Source: Macrostomum lignano (Eukaryota). Taken from it: a stretch of DNA of 64,000 nucleotides. The stretch is from positions 186,001 to 250,000 of the forward strand of contig NIVC01001180.1 of NCBI GenBank assembly GCA_002269645.1, read 5' to 3'. Shown here piece after piece: positions 51,206-64,000 of this stretch (position 1 is its first letter; each line of letters opens with the position of its first letter). Under the pieces are notes generated by a model. It was given only the letters and a program-made list of their open reading frames with translations, was not told the DNA's origin and searched no databases. Made by a program: the position numbers and the translations under genes.

Positions 51206-51953
51206 TTCCCGAAATCTCACCCGGAACATTTTCACCCGGAACACTACTGAAATTCGGTCTACACCCAGAATTCCATAGTGTTCCGGGTGAAAAATTCCGG
51301 AAAATCAGACCGGAACAGCTTTCCTTTTCCCGAAAATTTTCCGGATCATATTTCCGGATTTTTTTCCGGAACAAGGGGCTGTTCCGGGCCAAAAAAGCTG
51401 ATCCGGGCCTTCACCCGGAAATCAATTAAAAATCGGGCCCGGATCACAAAATTCCGGAAAAAATTCCGGGTGAAACGTTCGACGGGATGCAAAGATTGCA
51501 AAATAAAATATTGGTACTATAACATAAATTTATGCTGAGCACAAAATCATACCTTATGATAATTATATATTTAAATGAATACTCTTAAATATATCCCCTT
51601 ACTACTGGTATAATTAAGAATATAGGGACCTCTGCAATATTTTACAATAGATTCTATAGAAATATAGTGCAGAGTTCCCTGATTTTACAACTATATAATT
51701 ATCCAGAAAAACAAATGTTTATACATATATACAATACGAGTAAACTATAAAATAAACAACTATATAGACAAATGTTTGGGATTTTTACTTGGAAAAATGT
51801 GCTATTGACTACTGTCTATTGTTGACATAGCAGTTTTTTGTATCATATTATAGCACCATGTTAATAGAACCCAGTTGTTTTGACAAGTGATATATATGAA
51901 ATTAAATGTCTTCTTAAATTTGATAAAGACAGCAATCAGGATTGACTTATATA

Positions 51954-52587
51954 CACTCAGCAACATTCAAAACGCAACACTCCAACCAGAAGAAAAATCA
52001 ACTCACTCAGAAGAGTCAAAGCGCACAGTCTACGGTTCAAATCGAGCTTCAGAAACGCGTGTAGCTTCCTCTCGCAATTAACAGGGCGATGACTATGGAC
52101 TGTTTTCAGATAGAGTGATCCAGCTGAGAGAATGGTTCAACAGATGACAGACGCGGAAAGATGGCGAGCAGTCGGAATGTTGGAAGCAGGTTGTACTCTT
52201 CGAACAGTTGCGAACCACTTCGGGAGGTCGCCTTCAACAGTTTTACGTCTGCTACAGAAGAGCAGAGCCACTGGAAGCGTGGCTCACGCGAGAAAAGGTA
52301 CGGTGCTTCACCAACTTCGCAGTACAACAGCTGTTGTTCGAAGAGTACAACCTGCTTCCAACATTCCGACTGCTCGCCATCTTTCCGCGTCTGTCATCTG
52401 TTGAACCATTCTCTCAGCTGGATCACTCTATCTGAAAACAGTCCATAGTCATCGCCCTGTTACTTGCGAGAGGAAGCTACACGCGTTTCTGAAGCTCGAT
52501 TTGAACCATAGACTATGCGCTTTGACTCTTCTGAGTGAGTTGATTTTTCTTCTAGTTAGAGTGTTGCGTTTTAAATGTTGCTGAGTG
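51954..52587 (+). mobile_element. Internally deleted Tc1-like element (foldback) with 253-bp TIRs, TA target duplication
   Basis: 51954-52206 is the reverse complement of 52335-52587 with a few substitutions; TA at 51952-53 and 52588-89; ORF 52132..52404 begins with a Tc1/Tc3-type HTH (RWRAVGMLEAGCTLRTVANHFGRSPSTVLRLLQK..TGSV). Confidence 0.9.
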
Positions 52588-52988
52588 TATTTGTATTCTA
52601 CACTTCCTTGCTAAGATCATAGATATAGATTCAACACCAGCTGCATCTATATTAACATCTAGCTTTTTAGTTTCACAGTATAGGAAGTATATAATCTTTG
52701 TTTTTTTTGTTTTTGTAATCTCGGCTTTGCCTTATCCTGAGAACAGCATCCTCGGCCTTTCTCTGCCATAGGAACCAAAAGAACAGACAAAGATCATACT
52801 TAATCTACAGATATTGGAAGCACCTGGGAGTGGGAGTGAGGTATTCATCAAAAGTGGGGGTGTGGGGGGCGCAGCCCCCCACATTTAACCACAGACATAA
52901 AAATTAAAGTAAAAGATTTGATGCTTAAATTAAAAGCAAGAAAGGAAAGGTTTGGGCAGCTAGAGAAAATCAGAGAGAACTGAGAATC

Positions 52989-54279
52989 ATGGAACACGAC
53001 TTGGAACTTGCTTTTGACTGGTTGAATGACATTGAATTGAGAGAAAACAAGGCTTCTAGATTTGCGTTACTGTCCGATAACGAGGTTGCTGAAAGGATTG
53101 ATGCTGCTGTGCCGGAATCAACATGCCAGAAGGAACGATGGGCACTAAAGCTATTTGACGACTGGTTTCAGGAGAGGCAAACCAAACTGCTTCATGGAGA
53201 CGCCTGCAGTCTATCTGTGTTTAAAGAGTGTTCTGAATGGGGAAAATCAGATTGGAACTATCTACTAAAGACCTTCCTGTTTGAGGTTAGAAAAACTGAC
53301 AGTACCAAGTATAACTTGAGTAGTCTGAGAGATATGTTTAACATGTTGCAGCGACATATACATTTTGGACTTGGCACTAACTGGAATCTATGGAAAGATG
53401 ACAATTTTCTAGGTGCTTGAAGAGTGCTTGATGCTGGGATGAAAGAGACAACCAAGGAGGGCAACATTGCTGGAAAGTTTGTTTCTGACCCAATTCCATT
53501 CGACATGGAAAAAGATCTATGGGATAAGAAACTCCTTGGTACAGGCAATCCCAAGACTCTGGTGTATACACTCGTGTTCTATATCGGAAAAAAACTTTGC
53601 CTGTACCAAACTTTGTGGTGGTACAGAGCTGCACAGTCTAAAGAGAGGCAAAGAGATTTGCTTAGAACTACACGATGGCCAGGAAATGTTGGTCTACAGA
53701 GAGGAGCGGAGCACGAAAACCAACAATGCTAGGATCAGAAGCAAGAATTGTCCTGTGAAGGTTGTCATGGCTTTGCACACCCTAGATCATGAGCGCTGCC
53801 TTCCGTGCATCTATAAAATCTACGACGGCTACCAACTGGAGCAATGTAAGAACGAGAACCTTTTTCTGACTTGGTTTCAAAGTGAGTCTGCCATTAAGAG
53901 CGGCAGATGGTACCAGAATGGACCTATTGGCCGGCGTACTCTCGACTTCATTGTGGCGAATATCACCAAGCCCATGTCTATGGATAGTAAATTCTCAAAC
54001 CAGTCTTTAAGGAAGACTTGTGCCAGCATGTTGCATTGGGCTGGACTGGCTAGGGACGATATAGCCCATGTCACTGGACATTTGTCCAATGCAATTGAGA
54101 GGTACATACGGCTAGATGTCCCGGACCTTTTGCGTGTGACCTACGCTCTACATGCCGGAGAAGCCATGGAGTCCAATGGGCAGACCAATGAGCAAGATGT
54201 TGTATCTGATGGTACTACCAAGAAGATGCACATGACTGTCCACGGTGACACCAATACCATAGAAATCATGTTCGAGTGA
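52989..54279 (+). pseudogene. Crypton-type tyrosine recombinase (DUF3504/ZMYM-KCTD1-QRICH1-related), about 429 codons with one stop and one frameshift
   Basis: SRFA..VPEST..WALKLFDDW, FLFEVRK.D..Y..SSL, LD..MKE, PKTLVYTLVFYIGK(N)F, WYQNGPIG, FSNQSLRKTCAS, VTGHLS and IERY. TGA at 53418-20 and an extra A in the A7 run 53588-94 link ORFs 52989, 53424 and 53467. Confidence 0.85.
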
Positions 54280-54601
54280 ATTGGCAAGAATGAACCGGTC
54301 ATTACTGCTGTTGATAGTTTATACTTCTAATGGACTAACTGACGAATTATAGTTGTTCTAAAATGTTCTCAGGACTTGTTCCTAGGCCTGTTAACTGGTT
54401 AACAGGTCTTGTTTTGAGTTCTCAGGCTTTGTTTTTTAGTGAGGTTTGGCCATAGACTATTGTTCCACTAGAAAAGAAGGAGCCTAGGAATTTAGTGTGA
54501 ACTGTCATTTCTGTAGGTTAATGAAGGCAAATGCCTTGGTGCTCTGCTTTTTAAGTCTGGCTTATTTGGAATAGCAATGATTTATGATTTGGTGATTTTA
54601 G

Positions 54602-55057
54602 TGTAGTAGGGCATTATTTTAGGAACGGGAAATTTTGTGGGTCCAATTATGCTTTTACCCTACTATCAGTAGTTTCAACCCGGGGAAATAATTAGAGCGG
54701 GGGTAAGTAGATAAAATTGGGGTTCCTTTAGAACTACAGAGCAGTTGGGCTCTTGGGAAAGAAAAGTTGTTGTTGTTGGAGTGTCTTCGAACTTGGAAAA
54801 CTCACAAGAAAAGCGGTAAGAAGGGGAAATAAATAAAAGGAATATAATTTAGGCGTGCACAGAGGAGTCTTGCCTCTAAATCTATAAACTGGGAGTCTTG
54901 CCCAACGCACAACAGAAAACTTAAGTATAGGAACTAATGTAAAACCAAACTTTTGTACAATCAAGTAACCATTTCCGTTTTTTTTATTATTAAAACTTTT
55001 TGTGTTAACTAAATCTAAATTGGTGTCCTGACTCAGTTCTTTAAACCTAAAGCTACA
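54602..55057 (+). repeat. 5' LTR (456 bp, TGTAG..CTACA)
   Basis: Matches 62363-62814 except for a G/A at base 2 and two 1-nt indels; 5-bp terminal inverted repeat. Confidence 0.92.
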
Positions 55058-55063
55058 GCAGCC

Positions 55064-55074
55064 TGGTGGCAGCG
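55064..55074 (+). other. Primer-binding site, tRNA-Leu type
   Basis: TGGTGGCAGCG is complementary to a eukaryotic tRNA-Leu 3' end (..CGCUGCCACCA); 6 nt after the LTR. Confidence 0.75.
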
Positions 55075-55599
55075 AACTACCAAACATTAAAACAGTTAAT
55101 AATCCACTCATAATCCTTAGCAAATAAGAAACCAGTAGCTTAACCGCGAGGACTTAGCTTAGGATTAGAATACCCGAGAAGCGCATACATTAGACTGGAG
55201 CTTAGGATTAGTAAGGGATTAACGAATTAACTCCTATGTGCTGAAATTAGAACTAAAACTAACACAAATTTACTAATTAGGTTCTAAATTAGAGAATTAA
55301 TGTACATAGTCAGTTGATCTAAGATTGTCTGATCTCAGATTAACGGATTAACGGATTAGGAACGGATTAACGCTCCTGAAAGGAATTTTAACTTAGTTTC
55401 TTCGCTAGAAGATTAGTAAGGTCTCAATTAAGACCAGAAGTAAGGCGGAAGTAATAAAAGTAGAGTCACTGCTATTTTATTAACTAAAGTCTTACCATTA
55501 GGCAATTTAGCAGCTAAATTCGGAGTCTTGCCAATTTACTGACCAAAATTATTAAACCAGAAGCGTTAATTCTAAAATCCAACCTAAAATTAAACTAAT

Positions 55600-56613
55600 A
55601 TGGAAGCGAATGACGTAGTAGAAGCACTGGCTGAAGGCATTAGAGACGGGCTAGACATTAGGAAACACATTAGGATCCAAAAGTACACGCCTAATCAGGA
55701 TATAGACGTGTGGATTCAAGCTTTTGAGCAGAGGTGTATCGCAGATAAGATACCCCCAGCTGAGTGGAAGAATGAGCTACTGTCTAACCTAGATGTTCAG
55801 TCAGCGTTCGCTATCGTGACAAGGCTAAATTTAGATCCTAATCTAGCATACGCAGACTTTAAGGATAGGCTAATCGAGCGATTCACGCATGTAGGTAGTG
55901 CTCAAGAAGCTAGGGAAGAGTTCCGTAGTAGGTTCCAGTGCAAAACTGAAAGCACTGATGACTACGCTGAAAAGCTGACAGAGCTGGCATGCAGGGCGTT
56001 TCCCCATCTAACTAACGATCAGAGACAGGAAGAGGTGGTGGAACAATTTATTAGAGGTGTTAGGGTTGCCCCAGAGACTAGAGAGAAGCTACTACTAGCT
56101 CAGGTAAACTCGCTTCAAGAGACACGTCGAGTCTTGCGACGTATTGAAATGGCGTACGCTATGTCTCGCCGAGGTAGAGACCCGCAGCAGTGTAAGGCAA
56201 CTGGAGGAGAAGAAGCTGAGAATAGCTTGAAGGAATTGGTCCGCAAACAGGGTGAGGCGCTAGAAAACCAGCAGAAGGTGCTTCAGGAGTTACTCCGACA
56301 CCACCAAAGTGTTGAGCATAAGGTCAAGCAGCAGCAGCCGTCAGGACAGCAGCAGCAAGGCCAGAATCAGCAAGGGCGTCCCCCAGTAAAGTGTAACAGG
56401 TGTGGCAAGCTAGGTCACGTAGCTAAGAATTGTAGACAGCCACATCCGCAGAACCAACTTAGGTACCCGGCTCAGCAGCAGATGCAGTATCAGCAGCCGA
56501 TGTACCCACAGCAGCAGATGCAGCCGCAGTACCCGCAGCCGCATTACCCTCAGCAGCAGAATTCGGGAAACGGAGTAGACGGAAGCGTCGGAGGCAACGC
56601 TTTCCCGCAGTAG
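55600..56613 (+). CDS. gag: Gag with CCHC zinc knuckle, 337 aa
   Basis: Intact ORF; capsid-like WIQAFEQRC and QFIRG; CNRCGKLGHVAKNC; Q/P/Y-rich tail. Confidence 0.93.
   Translation: MEANDVVEALAEGIRDGLDIRKHIRIQKYTPNQDIDVWIQAFEQRCIADKIPPAEWKNELLSNLDVQSAFAIVTRLNLDPNLAYADFKDRLIERFTHVGSAQEAREEFRSRFQCKTESTDDYAEKLTELACRAFPHLTNDQRQEEVVEQFIRGVRVAPETREKLLLAQVNSLQETRRVLRRIEMAYAMSRRGRDPQQCKATGGEEAENSLKELVRKQGEALENQQKVLQELLRHHQSVEHKVKQQQPSGQQQQGQNQQGRPPVKCNRCGKLGHVAKNCRQPHPQNQLRYPAQQQMQYQQPMYPQQQMQPQYPQPHYPQQQNSGNGVDGSVGGNAFPQ
56565..56609 (+). other. -1 programmed ribosomal frameshift signal
   Basis: G GGA AAC in the gag frame (56565-71); the -1 frame is open from there into the protease; downstream hairpin GGAAGCGT (56581)/ACGCTTTCC (56597-56605). 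Confidence 0.75.
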
Positions 56614-59600
56614 ATCCCTCACAGTCTGTAGCCTCACAACCTGTAAATAGCAGCGATAATTTTTCTGTAAATAGTGAATTGAATTCTTCAGTGTATAACA
56701 GTACGCATGCGCAATCATTTAATCAATCATTTAATCAATCATTTAATCAGCCAAACATTTATTCTCAGCACTTTTCGAACGCACCACAACAGCAACCTTA
56801 TTCTAGCAAGCAGCAGCTAAAACAACCAAAAATAATTGAACAAACTAAAAAACAAAGTTACGATCCGTACATCACTGGCAGCATTTTAAATAAGGAAATA
56901 GTTTATCTATTAGACACTGGCAGTAATAGAAATATCTTAGGACGCGAAACCTGGAAGCATCTTTTCACTGGCAAGAATAGGCATCTAATTAAGCATTGGG
57001 ATAATATAATTGTTTCTTTTATGGAAGAGCCGATTCCAATTAAGGGTTTCGTAGTTATTAAGGCAACATTTGGCGATTTTGAAGAAGAAGTTCAGTTTCT
57101 CTTATGTGACGCAGATGTAGACAATGTAATAGGTGTGACGTTTGTCCAAAATTATTGTACTACTATTGACTTCGATGCAGGAATGCTAACCATGAAACAA
57201 GGAACTAGAATTCCGCTTCGATCAACCAGAGCTAAGCCTCAGGTTAGGAGAATCTATGTCGCAGAAAAGACGACAGTTCCAGCAATAGTTCAGGATTAGT
57301 CAAGTCAGATTAGCAGCAGGTAGTGAAACTAATTTCGGAGTGCCATCAGTTGTTGAGCCACTCAGATCAGGATTAAAGACTAGAACAGAGAAGGTAACTG
57401 TAGTGCCAAGTTTAGTAACTCTAAGACAAGGGGAAGCTTATTTAGAAGTGATTAACACCAGTTCACAGGAAGCCAGAGTACCAGCATCAGCATTAGTTGG
57501 GATGGCTAAACCACTCTTAGCTAGCGAGCTTAACTATCTGAAGGAACAGCCAGAAGAAGAACAGAATAAGAGCACGCAGTCTTGCGGAAGCAGAGAAAAG
57601 ATCAGTCAGGTACAGGACAAGTCAGAAGACTGGATTAGTGAGATTAACATAGGAACTGAACTGACTCAGGAACAGAGACAAAAGGTGATCGATGTCTTCA
57701 AGGAACATTCAGCAGCTTTCTCGCAGCACGAGTTAGACTTAGGCAGAACGCATTTAGTCACACATGAATTATCTTGAAGGACAACAACCCAGTTCAGATA
57801 CCAGCTAGGAAGATTCCACCTCATTGGATCAAGGAGGTAGATGAGCAGTTGGATTTCATGTTGGCTAGAGGCATAATTAGGCCTAGTTACTCGCAGTACT
57901 CGACTCCATTAGTCATAGTACCTAAGAAAGACGGTTCGCTGAGATTAGTTAACGACTATCGAGCACTAAACAATAAATCGGAGTACTTTCCGTATCCAAT
58001 AACTAATATCAATGAAACATTCTCATGTCTTCATGGAGCCAGTCAATTTTCTACGTTAGATCTATTTTCGGGATACTATCAGATAGCTCTTAGGGAAGAA
58101 GATAAGTGCAAGACTAGCTTTCCAACTTTACATCGAGGCTCGTTTGAGTACGAAGTATTGCCAATGGGATTGCAAGGAGCCCCAGGAACTTTTCAAAGGT
58201 GCATGAACTTAGTTCTTAAGGACATTGCACAAAAGTTCGCCATAGCTTACTTAGACGATGTAATAGTTTACAGTACAGATTTCGAAGCCCATTTAGAACA
58301 CCTGAAAGAAGTGCTCAAGAGACTAATACAAGCTAACATGAAACTAAAGGCTAAGAAATGTCACCTTTTCAAATCAGAGCTACAATATTTAGGACACGTC
58401 ATAGGCAAAACAGGAATTAAGAGAGATGCGTCAAAATTAGAAGCAATTAGGAACTGGCCGAAACCTAAATCTGTGACAGAGCTTCGAAGTTTTCTCGGAC
58501 TCTGTAATTACTATAGAAAATTCGTTAGAGATTTTGCCGAGGTAGCAGCACCACTCGGTGAGTTAACTAAGAAGAACATCAAATGTATCCAGGACAAATG
58601 GACCAGGATCCATGATGAATGCTTCGAGTTGTTGAAGGAACGGATGTGTTCCGAAGAAGTGCTTGCTTACCCAGAGTTCAATACAGACCCCAAGTTTATT
58701 TTGTGTTAGACACTGATGCATCAAATGTCAGAATTGGGGCGGTCTTGAATCAAGTGCAGAGCGACGGCATTGAAAGGCCGATCGCTTATTATAGTCGGAA
58801 GATGAGGCAGTCAGAAACTAGATATCCGATTACGAGGAAGGAGCTTCTAGCGATTGTTGACTCGCTGAAGTATTTTAGATTTTACCTCGTAGGAAAACAT
58901 TTTAAGGTGCGCACTGGTCACAATGCCCTAACCTGGTTGCTTCGCCAAACCGAACAGACAGGCATTTTAGGTCGTTGGATCGAAAGACTTTCCGAATTTG
59001 ATTTTGAGATAGAACATAGAAGTGGCCCTAAACATGTGAATGCTGACGCCCTATCCAGGATCCCTGATCCTCAACCGGAAGAGATGTCCCCACATGCCAG
59101 GTCGCTAAGCTGTAGGGCAACTGTGAATACAGACCCAGCATCAGCTTTTACTGTCAGCTCAGGCAATTCCGCGTTCGCTGAAACCTGTAGCTCGAGCAGT
59201 GGAGTTCCGTCATGCTGTTCGTCACAAGACACTGTCACGAACCGACACAATACTCCGATCTTTAGTAGCAGTAGGCTAGACAATAGACAGGGACAGGAGC
59301 CTAAAACCGGAAATCCGCCTGCATGCAATGCCCTGCTCAGTGACTATCTCCGTAGCCCAGTTCGCCGTGACCAATTGATCGCAGCACAGCTAGCCGATCC
59401 GGCGGTAGGCTTTGTTAGAAATTTAATTGAGAATGACTCGCCTAAACCGACATTTCAAGAACGACTAGAGTTAACCCACGACTGTAGGAACCTCTTAGGT
59501 TACTATGAGTTGCTCAGAATTGAGGACGGCGTACTCAAAGTAGACTTGTCTATGGGGCAGACTGATCCAAAGGTAGTGTTGCCCAAGTCTCTGGATAGTG

Positions 59601-61109
59601 AAGTCTTTCACCAATTCCATAATTCCATGATTCACCGTTAGCGGGACACCTAGGTCGAGATAAAACTTATCAGAGAATTAAAATTCGATTTTGGAGGCCA
59701 GGATTAGCAACAGCAGTTGAACGCTACGTAGCCAAATGTAAATCATGCCTAGAAAGCAAAACTAGACGAAGAATTAAGGCACGAATTCAGAACTATCCTG
59801 TAGTCGAACCGTTCGGTAGATTGCACATAGATCTAATAGGACCTATTGGCCAAACTAGCAAATCCGGAAACAAATATGTACTTTCAGTCATAGACAGCAC
59901 TAGCAAATTTCCATTCGCATTCGCAATTAGGAATCAGAAGGCTAAAACAGTTATCAAAATTCTACAAGAACGAGTTTTCGCTGATTTTGGGATTCCACAA
60001 TGGATTCACACAGACCAGGGAACACAGTTCACTGGTAGGGCCTTTAAGAAATTTTTAGACCTCTATGGCATTAGACACACTCGAACAACTAGTTATCATC
60101 CGCAGAGCAATGGCTTAGTAGAAAACCTTAATAAGCAGATAAATCAATTCTCACCTGTTTACTGGAGAAGGAGCATTCCAACTGGGACGTTCTGTTGCCA
60201 GGTTGCATAACAGCTCTGAGAACCAGCACGCACACTGCCACAGGATTTAGTCCGCACTATTTAGTCTTTGGACGAGAGGCCAGAATGCCCTGTGACAATG
60301 AGCTGAACGAGCCAAAGCAGTTTCAGGATTTGCCATCTTATGTCCAGGATCATCAGCAGAATCTGCAGGAAGGCCAAGAACTAGCAAGAAAGAGATTAAA
60401 ATTAGTGCAACAAAACCGTGAGCAGGAGTACTCTAATAAGCCTAAGCCGAAAATATTGCCTGTAGGAAGCTTAGTATTTATCAATAATCCAGTAATTGCT
60501 AACACAGAGGCTAACAAATTTCACAGAAAACAAAGGGCGGTTTACGAAATTGTAGAACAATTATCAGAAGTAGTCTTTAAGATTAGACCAGTTACCAAAA
60601 ATAAGAAGGCTAGAAAGGAAGAACTTATCATGCATAGGGATAATTTAATGAAAGTACCGCAAGCAGATTATCAGGAAGAAGAAGCTAGTACTAAGCCAAA
60701 AGAGCAGAGGAAACAATACAATAGGGAACAGTTAGCCAATAGCCAGCCGAATGTGTACAATGACTCAGAAAGTGAAGACGAGTACGAAGACGCAGTGCAG
60801 TTTATGCCAGTGCAACATCAAAATAATGAGCAGTTTATGCCAGTGCAAAATCAAAATAATGTGCAGTTAGTGCCAAATCAACAAGTGCAGCATCAAAATA
60901 ATAATCTAACTAATTTAGTAGGTGTACAAGGAGTTATGCCAGTACAATTAAATAATAACAATAATCTAGGGATTAATTTAGAAGCTAGGCCAGCGAGAGA
61001 GCGTCATGCTCCAGATAGATTAACAGTCAGGCCAAATCAGAAAAGTTATGTGCAGAGGATAGCGGAGTTGTTTAACCCATTTAACCTCTTGCAGCCAAAA
61101 TCTCAATAA
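56568..61109 (+). pseudogene. pol: Pol (protease, RT, RNase H, integrase), interrupted by several frameshifts
   Basis: PR LLDTGS; RT LPMGLQGAP and YLDD; RH TDAS; IN HHCC (H-D-S-P-L-A-G-H..CKSC), HIDL, TDQG, NGLVE and GPY/F-like LVFGREARMP; spans ORFs 56679, 57340, 57774, 58619, 59821 and 60195. Confidence 0.93.
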
Positions 61110-61111
61110 CT

Positions 61112-61834
61112 ATGGTCGACGCCCCAATCCGCGTCTATCCAAAAAAGCGAATCTATGGCCAACAAGGAAGACAGGCAGCTTCAGAAAATGAACCCCCAAG
61201 AATTAGGGCTGTTCAAGAAGTAAGTGATAGTGTCGCGACAAGCGGTAAAAAGTGGAAATTAGAGCAACCGGAAGAGGGCGGTGAGCCCAAAGGAAAACTG
61301 GTCGTGGACATAGACTTGGAAGAGTTGGAAAGGGAGACGGAAAGAGAGGAAGAAGCGTTCCGAGAGGAGATGACCAGATTCATGGAAGAGGTGCAACAGT
61401 ATGAGGAAAGAAGCCAGCAGGAAGACAGATTAGAGGAAGAAGAAGAGTGACAGCAACCAGCAGAGGAGCCAGCCGAGCCGCAAGTAGACCCAGGAGAGCA
61501 AAAGAGGAAGTTTCGATGCTGCCGCCGGGCCCTCAAGAAGTACATACTAAGGACGGGTAAGACCGGTATGTTCGAAACCGAATTACCCGAGGCCTGCGCG
61601 TGTTTCTTAACGACAGCGACCAAGGAGGAGGCAATTAAGTGCTACGAAATAGCCTGTACCTATTGCCTGCAATATGCGGAAAGTAATGCACGCGGCCCCT
61701 TCAGTATGAGCGTCACCATGGAGCAACTAGAGTTCTTGGCGGGAAAATTCGACCCGGAACGCCAAATGATCCTGGCCAACGGCTTATTGTATGCATCGGC
61801 GCAAAATAATATTTGGCCTGTACACGACATCTAA
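61112..61834 (+). CDS. Third ORF of unknown function (acidic region then Cys-rich C-terminus), 240 codons with one internal TGA at 61448-61450
   Basis: ATG 2 nt after the pol stop; ORFs 61112..61450 and 61568..61834 are the same frame separated by a single TGA; no TM or signal segment. Confidence 0.65.
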
Positions 61835-62349
61835 CTAGAGTAATCGAATTGCATTTTACTATATATTGGCTATTTTTACCATCTCTTGGGACAAATTGAA
61901 TTAAATCGCTGCCTTGCTTAATCATAGCACTTCCTTTTTTTGACATAAGGACCTGTCCACATTTTACGTTGCGTGCAATTTTCTATTTTTGATATGTCTA
62001 CATGTTATTCTTAATAGTGCCAACATTACTCAACCTGATGCTAATAAGATACACACCACTTATGCTTATATCTTGTTGTTGTAGTGTGCTGCAAAATTTT
62101 TTTTGTTTTGTTTTAGCAATATAGCAATATGCAACTTAATATCAATAATTCATTATATATCCTGCATTGTACTCTAATTGTCTAGGAATTCATGTTTACG
62201 CATTACATTTTCATATTCATAATAGTTGCTTACTTAATCCCTATATTCAGTACATCGCTGATAAGCGCACTAATACTTATTACGTAACTAAAATTTTGTT
62301 AATAAATATAATCATCAATGTACAAAAGGGGGTTTTGCACATTTTTGTA

Positions 62350-62362
62350 GCGAGGGGGGGGG
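62350..62362 (+). other. Polypurine tract
   Basis: GCGAGGGGGGGGG immediately 5' of the 3' LTR. Confidence 0.85.
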
Positions 62363-62827
62363 TATAGTAGGGCATTATTTTAGGAACGGGAAATTTTGTG
62401 GGTCCAATTATGCTTTTACCCTACTATCAGTAGTTTCAACCCGGGGAAATAATTAGAGCGGGGTAAGTAATAAAATTGGGGTTCCTTTAGAACTACAGAG
62501 CAGTTGGGCTCTTGGGAAAGAAAAGTTGTTGTTGTTGGAGTGTCTTCGAACTTGGAAAACTCACAAGAAAAGCGGTAAGAAGGGGAAATAAATAAAAGGA
62601 ATATAATTTAGGCGTGCACAGAGGAGTCTTGCCTCTAAATCTATAAACTGGGAGTCTTGCCCAACGCACAACAGAAAACTTAAGTATAGGAACTAATGTA
62701 AAACCAAACTTTTGTACAATCAAGTAACCATTTCCGTTTTTTTTATTATTAAAACTTTTTGTGTTAACTAAATCTAAATTGGTGTCCTGACTCAGTTCTT
62801 TAAACCTAAAGCTAGAATTAGGGAACA
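62363..62827 (+). repeat. 3' LTR (with an 11-nt insertion near its end)
   Basis: Matches the 5' LTR; GCTA[GAATTAGGGAA]CA at the end. Confidence 0.9.
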
Positions 62828-62934
62828 GCAGGAACCTGGTGGCAGCGAACTACCAAACATTAAAACAGTACCGCAGATAATAATCCACTCATAATCCTTA
62901 GCAAATAAGAAACCAGTAGCTTAACCGCGAGGAC
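62828..62934 (+). mobile_element. Second PBS plus truncated 5' leader directly after the 3' LTR
   Basis: TGGTGGCAGCG at 62837-47 and leader AACTACCAAACATTAAAACAGT..TAATCCACTC..CCGCGAGGAC matching 55075-55153. Confidence 0.88.
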
Positions 62935-64000
62935 ACGCCCATCTCATTAGTATATTTGTTAAGTGCCACCTCACTAAGGAACATTTCTATATTAAAATTC
63001 TCCTCCTCTGACAATAATGTCTCTGGCAGAAGCAAGCTGACAATATAGCAAAAAACTTGTATAGTTTAGACTCTGCACTCATTCATTATAGTGTCACCTA
63101 CTAGATTTAATAGACAGATAACAAAAATTCTATAATAGGTAGTCTGATTCCCTATATCCACAAAGCTTTCCTGATGCTGCCTTTTATTTGGTGAGGGCAG
63201 ACTTGGCACTACCATTGTTCTAGATTGTAATTGAGACTATCTTGCTATGCAATTGCAAAGTCAAATCTAGATGTTGGTAAAGACTTCATTAAATAGCATT
63301 TGATGTAGCACATGCTAGCTTGCTATATGTTACCTTCAAAATAAATGAATGATAAGCAAGTACAGTATTGTTAGGCCTAGCCTAGTCCTCTGCTTAAAAA
63401 TATTAAGATATATACAACTTTAGTTCTACACAGTAAAAACTGTATTAAATACTACATTGATATATGACACATTTTAATGTGGAATTTAATGCGGGATTCA
63501 ATGCAAAGTTTCAACATAAAACTAATTGAAGAATTAACAAATTATATAATCTAGACAAAATTAACCATATCTTTTTTATGTTCTTTATTAATAATTAATA
63601 TTCCTAAGCCTATTCAATATAGAATTCAATATGGGATTTCTTATACTAAACTTGACTTGGCTTCTTAAGCCTATTATTCAATATAGAATTTAACGTCCTT
63701 GAATAGAAAAAAAAATAGACCATTTTGTCCTTGTCTAATAGGGAGTATTTTGTTATTGTATGGCATCCCCTATGTATCAATGATTAAGGCAGGATAGCAC
63801 TGTGCCTGCGTCAAATGCATCTAGCCTTCAATGCAGACCAATACAATAGCCAATAAGGCTTCTTTTTCCTGAGGGGTTTCGACATGCAATTTGCTTGATT
63901 GAAAGACTTGTAGTGAAAAACATTCAAATGTGTGTTGTGTTTTTCTGTGAATCTTTTTCTTTTTTTAAATGGCAAAAATTAAGTTCAAAATGCATTTTTT

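Follow-up and report, generated by a model that had tools for sequence, protein, structure and literature searches.

A non-Env third open reading frame of a Macrostomum lignano Ty3/Gypsy element is kept in at least nine old, exchangeable versions

Extra genes besides Env are few in animal retrotransposons and mostly lack functional tests, and a Ty3/Gypsy element of Macrostomum lignano raises the question of what is encoded by a third open reading frame (ORF3) that stands in the position of env. The element occupies positions 54602-62946 of the window, by which we mean the whole stretch of DNA analysed (64,000 nucleotides of contig NIVC01001180.1, positions 186,001 to 250,000 of the forward strand), and is complete: it has both LTRs and a polypurine tract and is flanked by a target duplication of 4 bp; its domain order was read as gag, then protease-RT-RNase H-integrase, that of Ty3/Gypsy elements. 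A first-pass annotation of the letters had described ORF3 as opening at an ATG (61112) located 2 nt downstream of the pol TAA (61107-61109) and running for 240 codons with a single TGA at codon 113 (61448-61450, context GAG TGA CAG CAA), a basic N-terminus followed by a charged tract, and the cysteine motifs CC, CAC and C-x4-C-x2-C, all of which proved correct letter for letter. The features of the element, all on the plus strand, are as follows.

54598..54601 (left) and 62947-62950 (right), +, 4-bp target site duplication; 4-bp duplications also surround other copies
54602..55153, +, 5′ LTR; the window copy has lost the 3′ end of this LTR together with the primer-binding site
55440..55446, +, candidate splice donor in the leader, 160 nt upstream of gag
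55600..56613, +, gag, with domain matches to Retrotrans_gag and zf-CCHC
56565..56571, +, heptamer of the slippery type where gag and pol overlap, a likely -1 frameshift site
56572..61109, +, pol (protease, RT, RNase H, integrase), in several frames in the window copy
61067..61094, +, splice-acceptor-like site in the last pol codons, 17 nt 5′ of the ORF3 ATG
61112..61834, +, ORF3, 240 codons, interrupted by a stop in the window insertion
61112..61210, +, basic N-terminal motifs of ORF3 (MADAP.R.Y..K.IY; ENE.P..R), conserved and predicted to be disordered
61298..61321, +, L-x-[VI]-[DN]-[ILV] followed by acidic residues in ORF3, resembling a SUMO-interacting motif (SIM)
61316..61411, +, acidic long helix of ORF3, residues 69-100, in the AlphaFold2 model
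61448..61450, +, in-frame stop TGA, private to one insertion
61490..61795, +, C-terminal five-helix domain of ORF3 (C-domain), a confident model with mean pLDDT 88.8 and pTM 0.81
61835..62348, +, T-rich 3′UTR, which goes along with the ORF3 type
62349..62362, +, polypurine tract
62363..62946, +, 3′ LTR

The window copy is damaged beyond ORF3, with pol spread over several frames and the primer-binding site, present in relatives, deleted; a primer-binding-site-like sequence was seen within the LTR itself (55071-55082). LTR comparison in sister copies of the window insertion gave 8/585 and 8/586. The nearest database RTs were unnamed, one at 60% identity and the next at 52% or less, and these do not tie the element to a named clade (Mag, CsRN1, Gmr1/Osvaldo, Mdg3); because the RT has no close database relative, the lineage is poorly sampled, and the orphan status of ORF3 described below may reflect this sampling.

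Focusing first on whether ORF3 could be an Env, we compared 20 aligned ORF3 proteins from the genome, which fell into nine types at 80% identity. A hydropathy scan detected no hydrophobic segment in any of the nine types (maxima over 19 residues of 0.19-0.68 across the types and the window copy, with 0.68 in the window ORF3), so that neither the signal peptide nor the membrane anchor of an Env is present; a furin-type R-x-K/R-R site is absent from the window ORF3, with unaligned matches in three of the nine types. Likeness to F- or gB-type fusogens yielded no match in the Pfam, PDB and viral fold searches, lists which need not contain the family. Since no type has a hydrophobic segment, ORF3 is not an Env, and the proposal of a non-Env accessory frame is borne out by the missing signal peptide, membrane segment and conserved furin site together with the purifying selection reported below. 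The Env genes of Gypsy/errantiviruses and Tor elements likewise lie after pol with an acceptor just upstream, as for a spliced env mRNA (PMC4402516, 10.1101/2023.10.26.564294), but ORF3 is far shorter and lacks their signal peptide, membrane anchor, conserved cleavage site and glycoprotein similarity. The sORF1/sORF2 frames of the Drosophila MDG1 group are, like ORF3, accessory frames of Ty3/Gypsy elements without Env; sORF2 is described as a short membrane fusogen (PMC11952523), whereas ORF3 has no membrane segment of the sORF2/FAST kind.

A DNA search of the M. lignano genome gave 42 matches, and a search with the C-terminal half gave 82 matches among 90 scored candidates, which together with a dN/dS far below 1 argues that ORF3 is more than a chance reading frame. 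We fetched 40 loci at about 9.9 kb each, a non-random sample picked to span close and distant matches. Full-length ORF3 (240-285 aa) was found in 23 of the 40, so the frame is kept in other copies and is not the absent or disrupted frame that would have counted against a gene; 14 were broken at scattered places and three had no start. Five fetched loci (L088, L089, L098, L100 and L142), two of them with a full ORF3, carry ORF3 without a gag or pol match in the fetched stretch, and are by their sequence presumably deleted, interrupted or non-autonomous carriers. For the C-domain, dN/dS was 0.04-0.17 in the eight of 21 pairs with measurable dS (dS was saturated in the other 13), far below the value near 1 expected of a decaying frame, and these substitution ratios show ORF3 to be under purifying, not positive, selection.

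The AlphaFold2 model of ORF3 comprises a disordered N-terminus, the acidic helix and the confident five-helix C-domain. Residues 1-35 have a net charge of +2 to +5 in all nine types, followed by a middle part with net -13 to -24. The disordered arm contains the motif at 61298..61321, which resembles the SUMO-interacting consensus; it is unstructured in the model and occurs in 16 of 20 aligned copies, the pattern having been drawn from the same alignment. Complex prediction with residues 52-100 and a SUMO-like protein of the M. lignano genome scored 0.06 against a mark of 0.34, which neither supports nor opposes binding. NLS-like patterns were found in seven of nine types and in none of the other two. 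The suggestion of a zinc-binding, cysteine-rich domain was not supported: among the 23 full-length copies only C162 (23/23) and C182 (22/23) are conserved, the first C of CC is found in no copy (0/23), the second C of CAC in two, and the whole C-x4-C-x2-C in ten, so that three or four Cys/His ligands are not conserved together. Only the stop-bearing lineage has the CC pair, and in the confident all-helical model a single long helix carries the C-x4-C-x2-C residues; with only two conserved cysteines in a helical context, a zinc finger is unlikely.

Searches beyond the family found almost nothing. A word search with the C-domain confirmed 0 of 25 candidates, and a search with the 20-sequence alignment 0 of 7997; of the pattern matches, none was confirmed among 8 in metagenome contigs or among 25 in viral contigs. 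A HMMER search with an eight-sequence group A profile against 1.84 billion representatives gave four matches, three of which were WD40-repeat proteins that we rejected as repeat artefacts. The fourth is an M. lignano gene model (P0002), a single-member UniRef entry whose first 124 residues are ORF3; it joins these residues to unrelated downstream sequence under a lectin name, and is likely an annotation chimera. Apart from this model the HMMER search returned no outside homologue of ORF3, and thus no hit to a known Env or host gene of the kind that the first-pass annotation had named as contrary evidence. Pfam gave nothing above cut-off, and the best PDB matches by sequence were not significant (a DNAJC9 fragment at E 0.17 and a Slx1 fragment at 0.069). 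A Foldseek comparison of the C-domain, which had been proposed as a check, found no known fold at E 0.001; unnamed bacterial clusters in the ESM Atlas (0.84 and 0.93) showed low recognition and were not accepted, and the best VIA hits (Z 6.6 and 6.8, to AppA and cullin repeats, rmsd 3-5 Å) are at a level common for helical bundles. The C-domain is therefore a confidently predicted domain whose modelled fold is unmatched. Three short ORF3-family motifs are absent from supplement 5 of PMC12801592, which suggests that the family has no published name there, and no word in the main text of that paper begins with 'ORF'.

The versions of ORF3 are old. Compared with the window type, some types are 62-64% identical and others 40-44% (about 40-65% overall), with synonymous sites saturated. 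In contigs of sequencing runs, loose ends at 61095-61121 carry ORF3 starts of further types beyond the fetched copies, making nine types a lower bound. The backbones that carry these versions are young by comparison: the RT protein is 96-98% identical in nearly all copies, and the 15 full-length elements compared form two groups, A (L031-L050) and B (L083-L093), whose members agree at 97-99% in gag-pol DNA and at 98-100% in the integrase adjoining ORF3, while ORF3 types within a group share 62-77%. For the pair L083 and L086, dS was 0 in gag, 0 in RT and 0.01 in integrase, against a dS of 2.9 and dN of 0.17 in the ORF3 C-domain.

Testing the ORF3 clades on RT and integrase trees of 14 copies by p-AU, we found that the L083/84/85 clade was rejected by both (0.0006 in RT, 0.0015 in integrase), the L086/87/91 clade by RT (0.028) and not by integrase (0.10), and the L034/35/37 clade by neither (0.158 and 0.079). 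Identity of ORF3 correlates with that of the 3′UTR (rho 0.52 and 0.79) and not with that of the LTR or leader (-0.16 to -0.02). As the RT and integrase trees reject an ORF3 clade, ORF3 and the 3′UTR form an exchanged cassette, and these sequence comparisons show that old ORF3 versions travel with their 3′UTR between young gag-pol backbones. Exchange was seen only within A or within B in the 14-copy trees, and not across the two groups. Both LTRs were available for 16 copies, and six pairs, spanning three ORF3 types, were without any substitution, so several types have moved recently. A non-Env ORF3 is in itself of a known kind; what is new is an orphan ORF3 kept in nine old, exchangeable versions. 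The literature covered, which excluded subscription journals and preprint supplements, gave no account of this ORF3 or of ORF3 cassette exchange within one family; an earlier M. lignano LTR classification, cited in PMC12801592, may bear on novelty. A close parallel is with the non-env ORF3s of bdelloid rotifer LTR-retrotransposons (GDSL, DEDDy, coiled-coil and TM), which are also separate, modular, placed after pol and not Env, and are typically expressed from spliced messages; these are, in contrast, mostly recognisable captured enzymes and family-specific, while the M. lignano ORF3 is an orphan in many old versions within one family (PMC5408684).

Of 34 copies, 17 have 2 nt between the pol stop and the ATG, five have 3 nt and twelve have 4 nt; there is thus no fixed frame relation, a pol-ORF3 fusion is ruled out, and translation would begin at ORF3's own ATG. 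The acceptor-like site consists of a branch-like TTTAAC, an AG-free pyrimidine-rich stretch and CAG, and in all 34 copies with this anchor (only seven haplotypes; 6 of 40 copies lack it) CAG is the first AG, 22 nt past a branch-like TTTAAY and 13-18 nt before the ATG. The Gln codon at the acceptor is always CAG, although the pol tail uses both Gln codons about equally (17 CAA, 18 CAG); because the site lies within pol codons, its conservation may nevertheless be protein-driven, and in a crude scan it ranked below three other sites among the 85 branch-like sites of the element. The candidate donor is at the same place in all four group A leaders compared, and GTAAG is found at another leader offset in two of three group B leaders. 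A spliced subgenomic mRNA had been suggested as a check: run contigs cover several ORF3 types and several cross the acceptor unspliced, and none among those listed, from six distinct runs that we take to be RNA and whose contigs would drop rare forms, was spliced or had a loose end at the acceptor. On this sequence evidence we slightly favour an mRNA made through the acceptor by cis-splicing or by spliced-leader trans-splicing, which ~30% of genes in M. lignano undergo (PMC12582326); less probable is reinitiation downstream of the pol stop, and an internal promoter, as known from Tor elements (PMC4402516), would be improbable. On the minus strand, contigs of 4/4 runs join across 3514 nt with GT-AG ends (56641-60154), likely an antisense spliced transcript from which most of pol is removed; no genomic deletion copy matching the join was found among the best candidates of 40 and 43 genome matches, and the splice sites are kept in group A copies and not in group B. 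No heat-shock element was found in seven LTRs.

Our leading interpretation, to which we assign a probability of about 0.42, is that ORF3 may encode a soluble nuclear protein, a trans-acting adaptor that engages host chromatin or silencing factors. A nuclear adaptor would fit the anatomy of ORF3, soluble with basic clusters, disordered-arm motifs, a SIM-like motif, an acidic helix and a small helical domain. The protein would likely be made from its own processed mRNA, starting at its own ATG; basic clusters would carry it into the nucleus; the disordered N-terminal motifs, SIM-like motif and acidic helix would bind host proteins; and the helical C-domain would confer type specificity. We infer these steps from sequence and model, and presume nuclear location, host binding and anti-silencing from short motifs; the chromatin-targeting or anti-silencing role raised in the first-pass annotation is a possible one. 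Old versions would persist if no single version beats host control for long, and the allele pattern fits such a conflict: a gene in host-element conflict would be expected to look like this, with versions that are old, each under purifying selection, swapped among near-identical backbones and, for several of them, recently mobile. The VANC genes of Arabidopsis VANDAL elements, also accessory genes in diverged versions, are a model for a family-specific, trans-acting anti-silencing factor; they belong to plant DNA transposons and have tested activity and tandem target motifs, while ORF3 belongs to an animal retrotransposon, with no homology found to VANC and a putative role (PMC6719617). The same 2019 review states that no transposon-encoded factor against the piRNA pathway was known. 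Because M. lignano allows transgenesis (PMC12801592), localisation, partners and knockdown of ORF3 are directly accessible.

The allele pattern may have a simpler origin, a matter partly separate from that of function. ORF3 could have one conserved job and its diversity be a by-product, old lineages having met in one genome in which recent gag-pol backbones swept by recombination. Groups A and B have exchanged RT as well (dS 0.26 in RT against 0.82 in gag and saturation in integrase), and codons 1-45 of ORF3 in L034, L035, L048 and L049 show that an N-terminal block recombines apart from the rest; mosaicism is thus not special to ORF3, and sweeping backbones could have produced the pattern even if diversity in ORF3 was not selected for. 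Different histories for RT, gag, integrase, LTR and the ORF3 N-terminus, and selection on ORF3 that is purifying throughout, agree with this origin. We nevertheless consider it doubtful, as nine types sit on two backbones with at least three recently mobile, and a sweep that repeatedly spares only the cassette next to an integrase 98-100% identical within groups needs a reason.

By analogy with known export factors, ORF3 might instead export or stabilise unspliced genomic RNA through a cognate signal in the linked 3′UTR, as Rev or CERV would. With an acceptor in pol, the genomic RNA would itself contain an intron, the 3′UTR goes along with the ORF3 type, and CERV of C. elegans Cer1, which is translated from a spliced mRNA, resides in the nucleus and is required for export (PMC10309623). 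CERV is, like ORF3, a lineage-restricted Ty3/Gypsy accessory protein with a candidate NLS and, in the account given there, no outside homologues; it has 517 aa, exons in common with gag and a tested export role, whereas ORF3 lies after pol, has no sequence link to it and has a role suggested by sequence (PMC10309623). We regard this reading as unlikely, because the RNA check, limited to the 3′UTRs, found those of six types unstructured (lowest z -1.2), adjacency alone explains the linkage of ORF3 and 3′UTR, the middle of ORF3 is strongly acidic, and in the HMMER search ORF3 matched neither CERV nor any outside protein.

Concerning descent, ORF3 could be a strongly diverged relative, without the J-domain, of the J-domain ORF3s that we observed in other Gypsy lineages of the genome (L131-L140), sharing an acidic linker and C-terminal helical domain with them. 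All four J-domain ORF3s scanned have clear DnaJ matches, and one J-domain ORF3 has a chromodomain; no DnaJ match was found in any scanned ORF3 of the window's family, and no J-domain was among the 50 VIA matches listed. They resemble ORF3 in slot, in an AG shortly before the ATG, in an acidic linker, and in a C-terminal domain of similar size (about 115-120 aa); they also carry hydrophobic-acidic motifs of SIM type. The first helix aligns over 27 columns at E 0.008, a score that column shuffling never attained in 100 trials and block shuffling attained once in 100. The match probability is, however, 2.5-4.8% for one helix only, in a comparison picked after the likeness was seen, and genome searches with two of the J-ORF3 C-domains at E up to 1 failed to recover any of the ORF3 loci. 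RT identity between the two sets of elements is about 43%, and their RTs fall in separate clades, with sisterhood neither shown nor rejected (p-AU 0.50). ORF3 has neither a J-domain nor a chromodomain and homology of the C-domains is not established, so that we judge such a relationship rather unlikely. A decayed J-domain as the origin of the C-domain was suggested by likeness seen by eye only, and no support was found for it.

A bolder form of our leading interpretation, a counter-silencing protein held in many ancient allelic versions by frequency-dependent selection, swapped as a cassette between identical backbones and expressed like a host operon gene by spliced-leader trans-splicing, would be quite improbable as a whole. 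Still less probable is a particle or integrase cofactor serving assembly, targeting or cell-to-cell transfer: exchange only within group A or group B fits a need to match integrase or Gag, and non-Env transfer ORFs exist (PMC11952523), but types with 40-65% likeness function alongside Gag and integrase that hardly differ, a membrane segment is missing from ORF3, and recombination, which needs homology, would impose the same group limit.

The stop in the window copy had been read either as programmed readthrough, giving a 112-aa form and a longer one, or as inactivation by point mutation, with the question of whether TGA 61448 is fixed in the genome. Among the ten closest copies, two carry the TGA and the other eight do not (one of these with a nearby deletion). 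The two stop-bearing copies share both flanks with the window at 98-99%, so that all three are one insertion duplicated along with its surroundings. A contig of sequencing run X1 carries the stop and is identical to the window over 60919-61758; the stop is therefore not an assembly error. It is a lesion of one insertion and not a readthrough signal or switch, in agreement with inactivation by point mutation. A programmed leaky stop as a family feature is already refuted: TGA followed by C is a leaky stop context and the stop is present in three assembly copies and one run contig, but those copies are a single insertion, eight of ten close copies have no stop at that place, and the same lineage bears other private amino-acid changes. 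Private changes in the window lineage, nonsynonymous to synonymous, were 6:1 in ORF3 and 4:8 in gag-pol (Fisher p 0.057), which hints weakly that the loss of ORF3 came first and that its product does not have to act in cis.

The surrounding sequence holds further mobile and repetitive DNA. In L141 (5934-6310, homologous to window 60278-60286) we noted an insertion of ~350 nt that has inverted ends and is accompanied by a 9-nt duplication. It is likely a small DNA transposon, and run contigs contain the same junctions. Upstream of the element, ORFs at 52929-54279 have weak QRICH1, DUF3504 and phage-integrase matches, suggesting a Crypton-like tyrosine-recombinase element. A 256-nt inverted repeat pair surrounds a short transposase-like fragment at 51951-52590, and many tandem arrays with units of 8-33 nt were found at 2000-42000.
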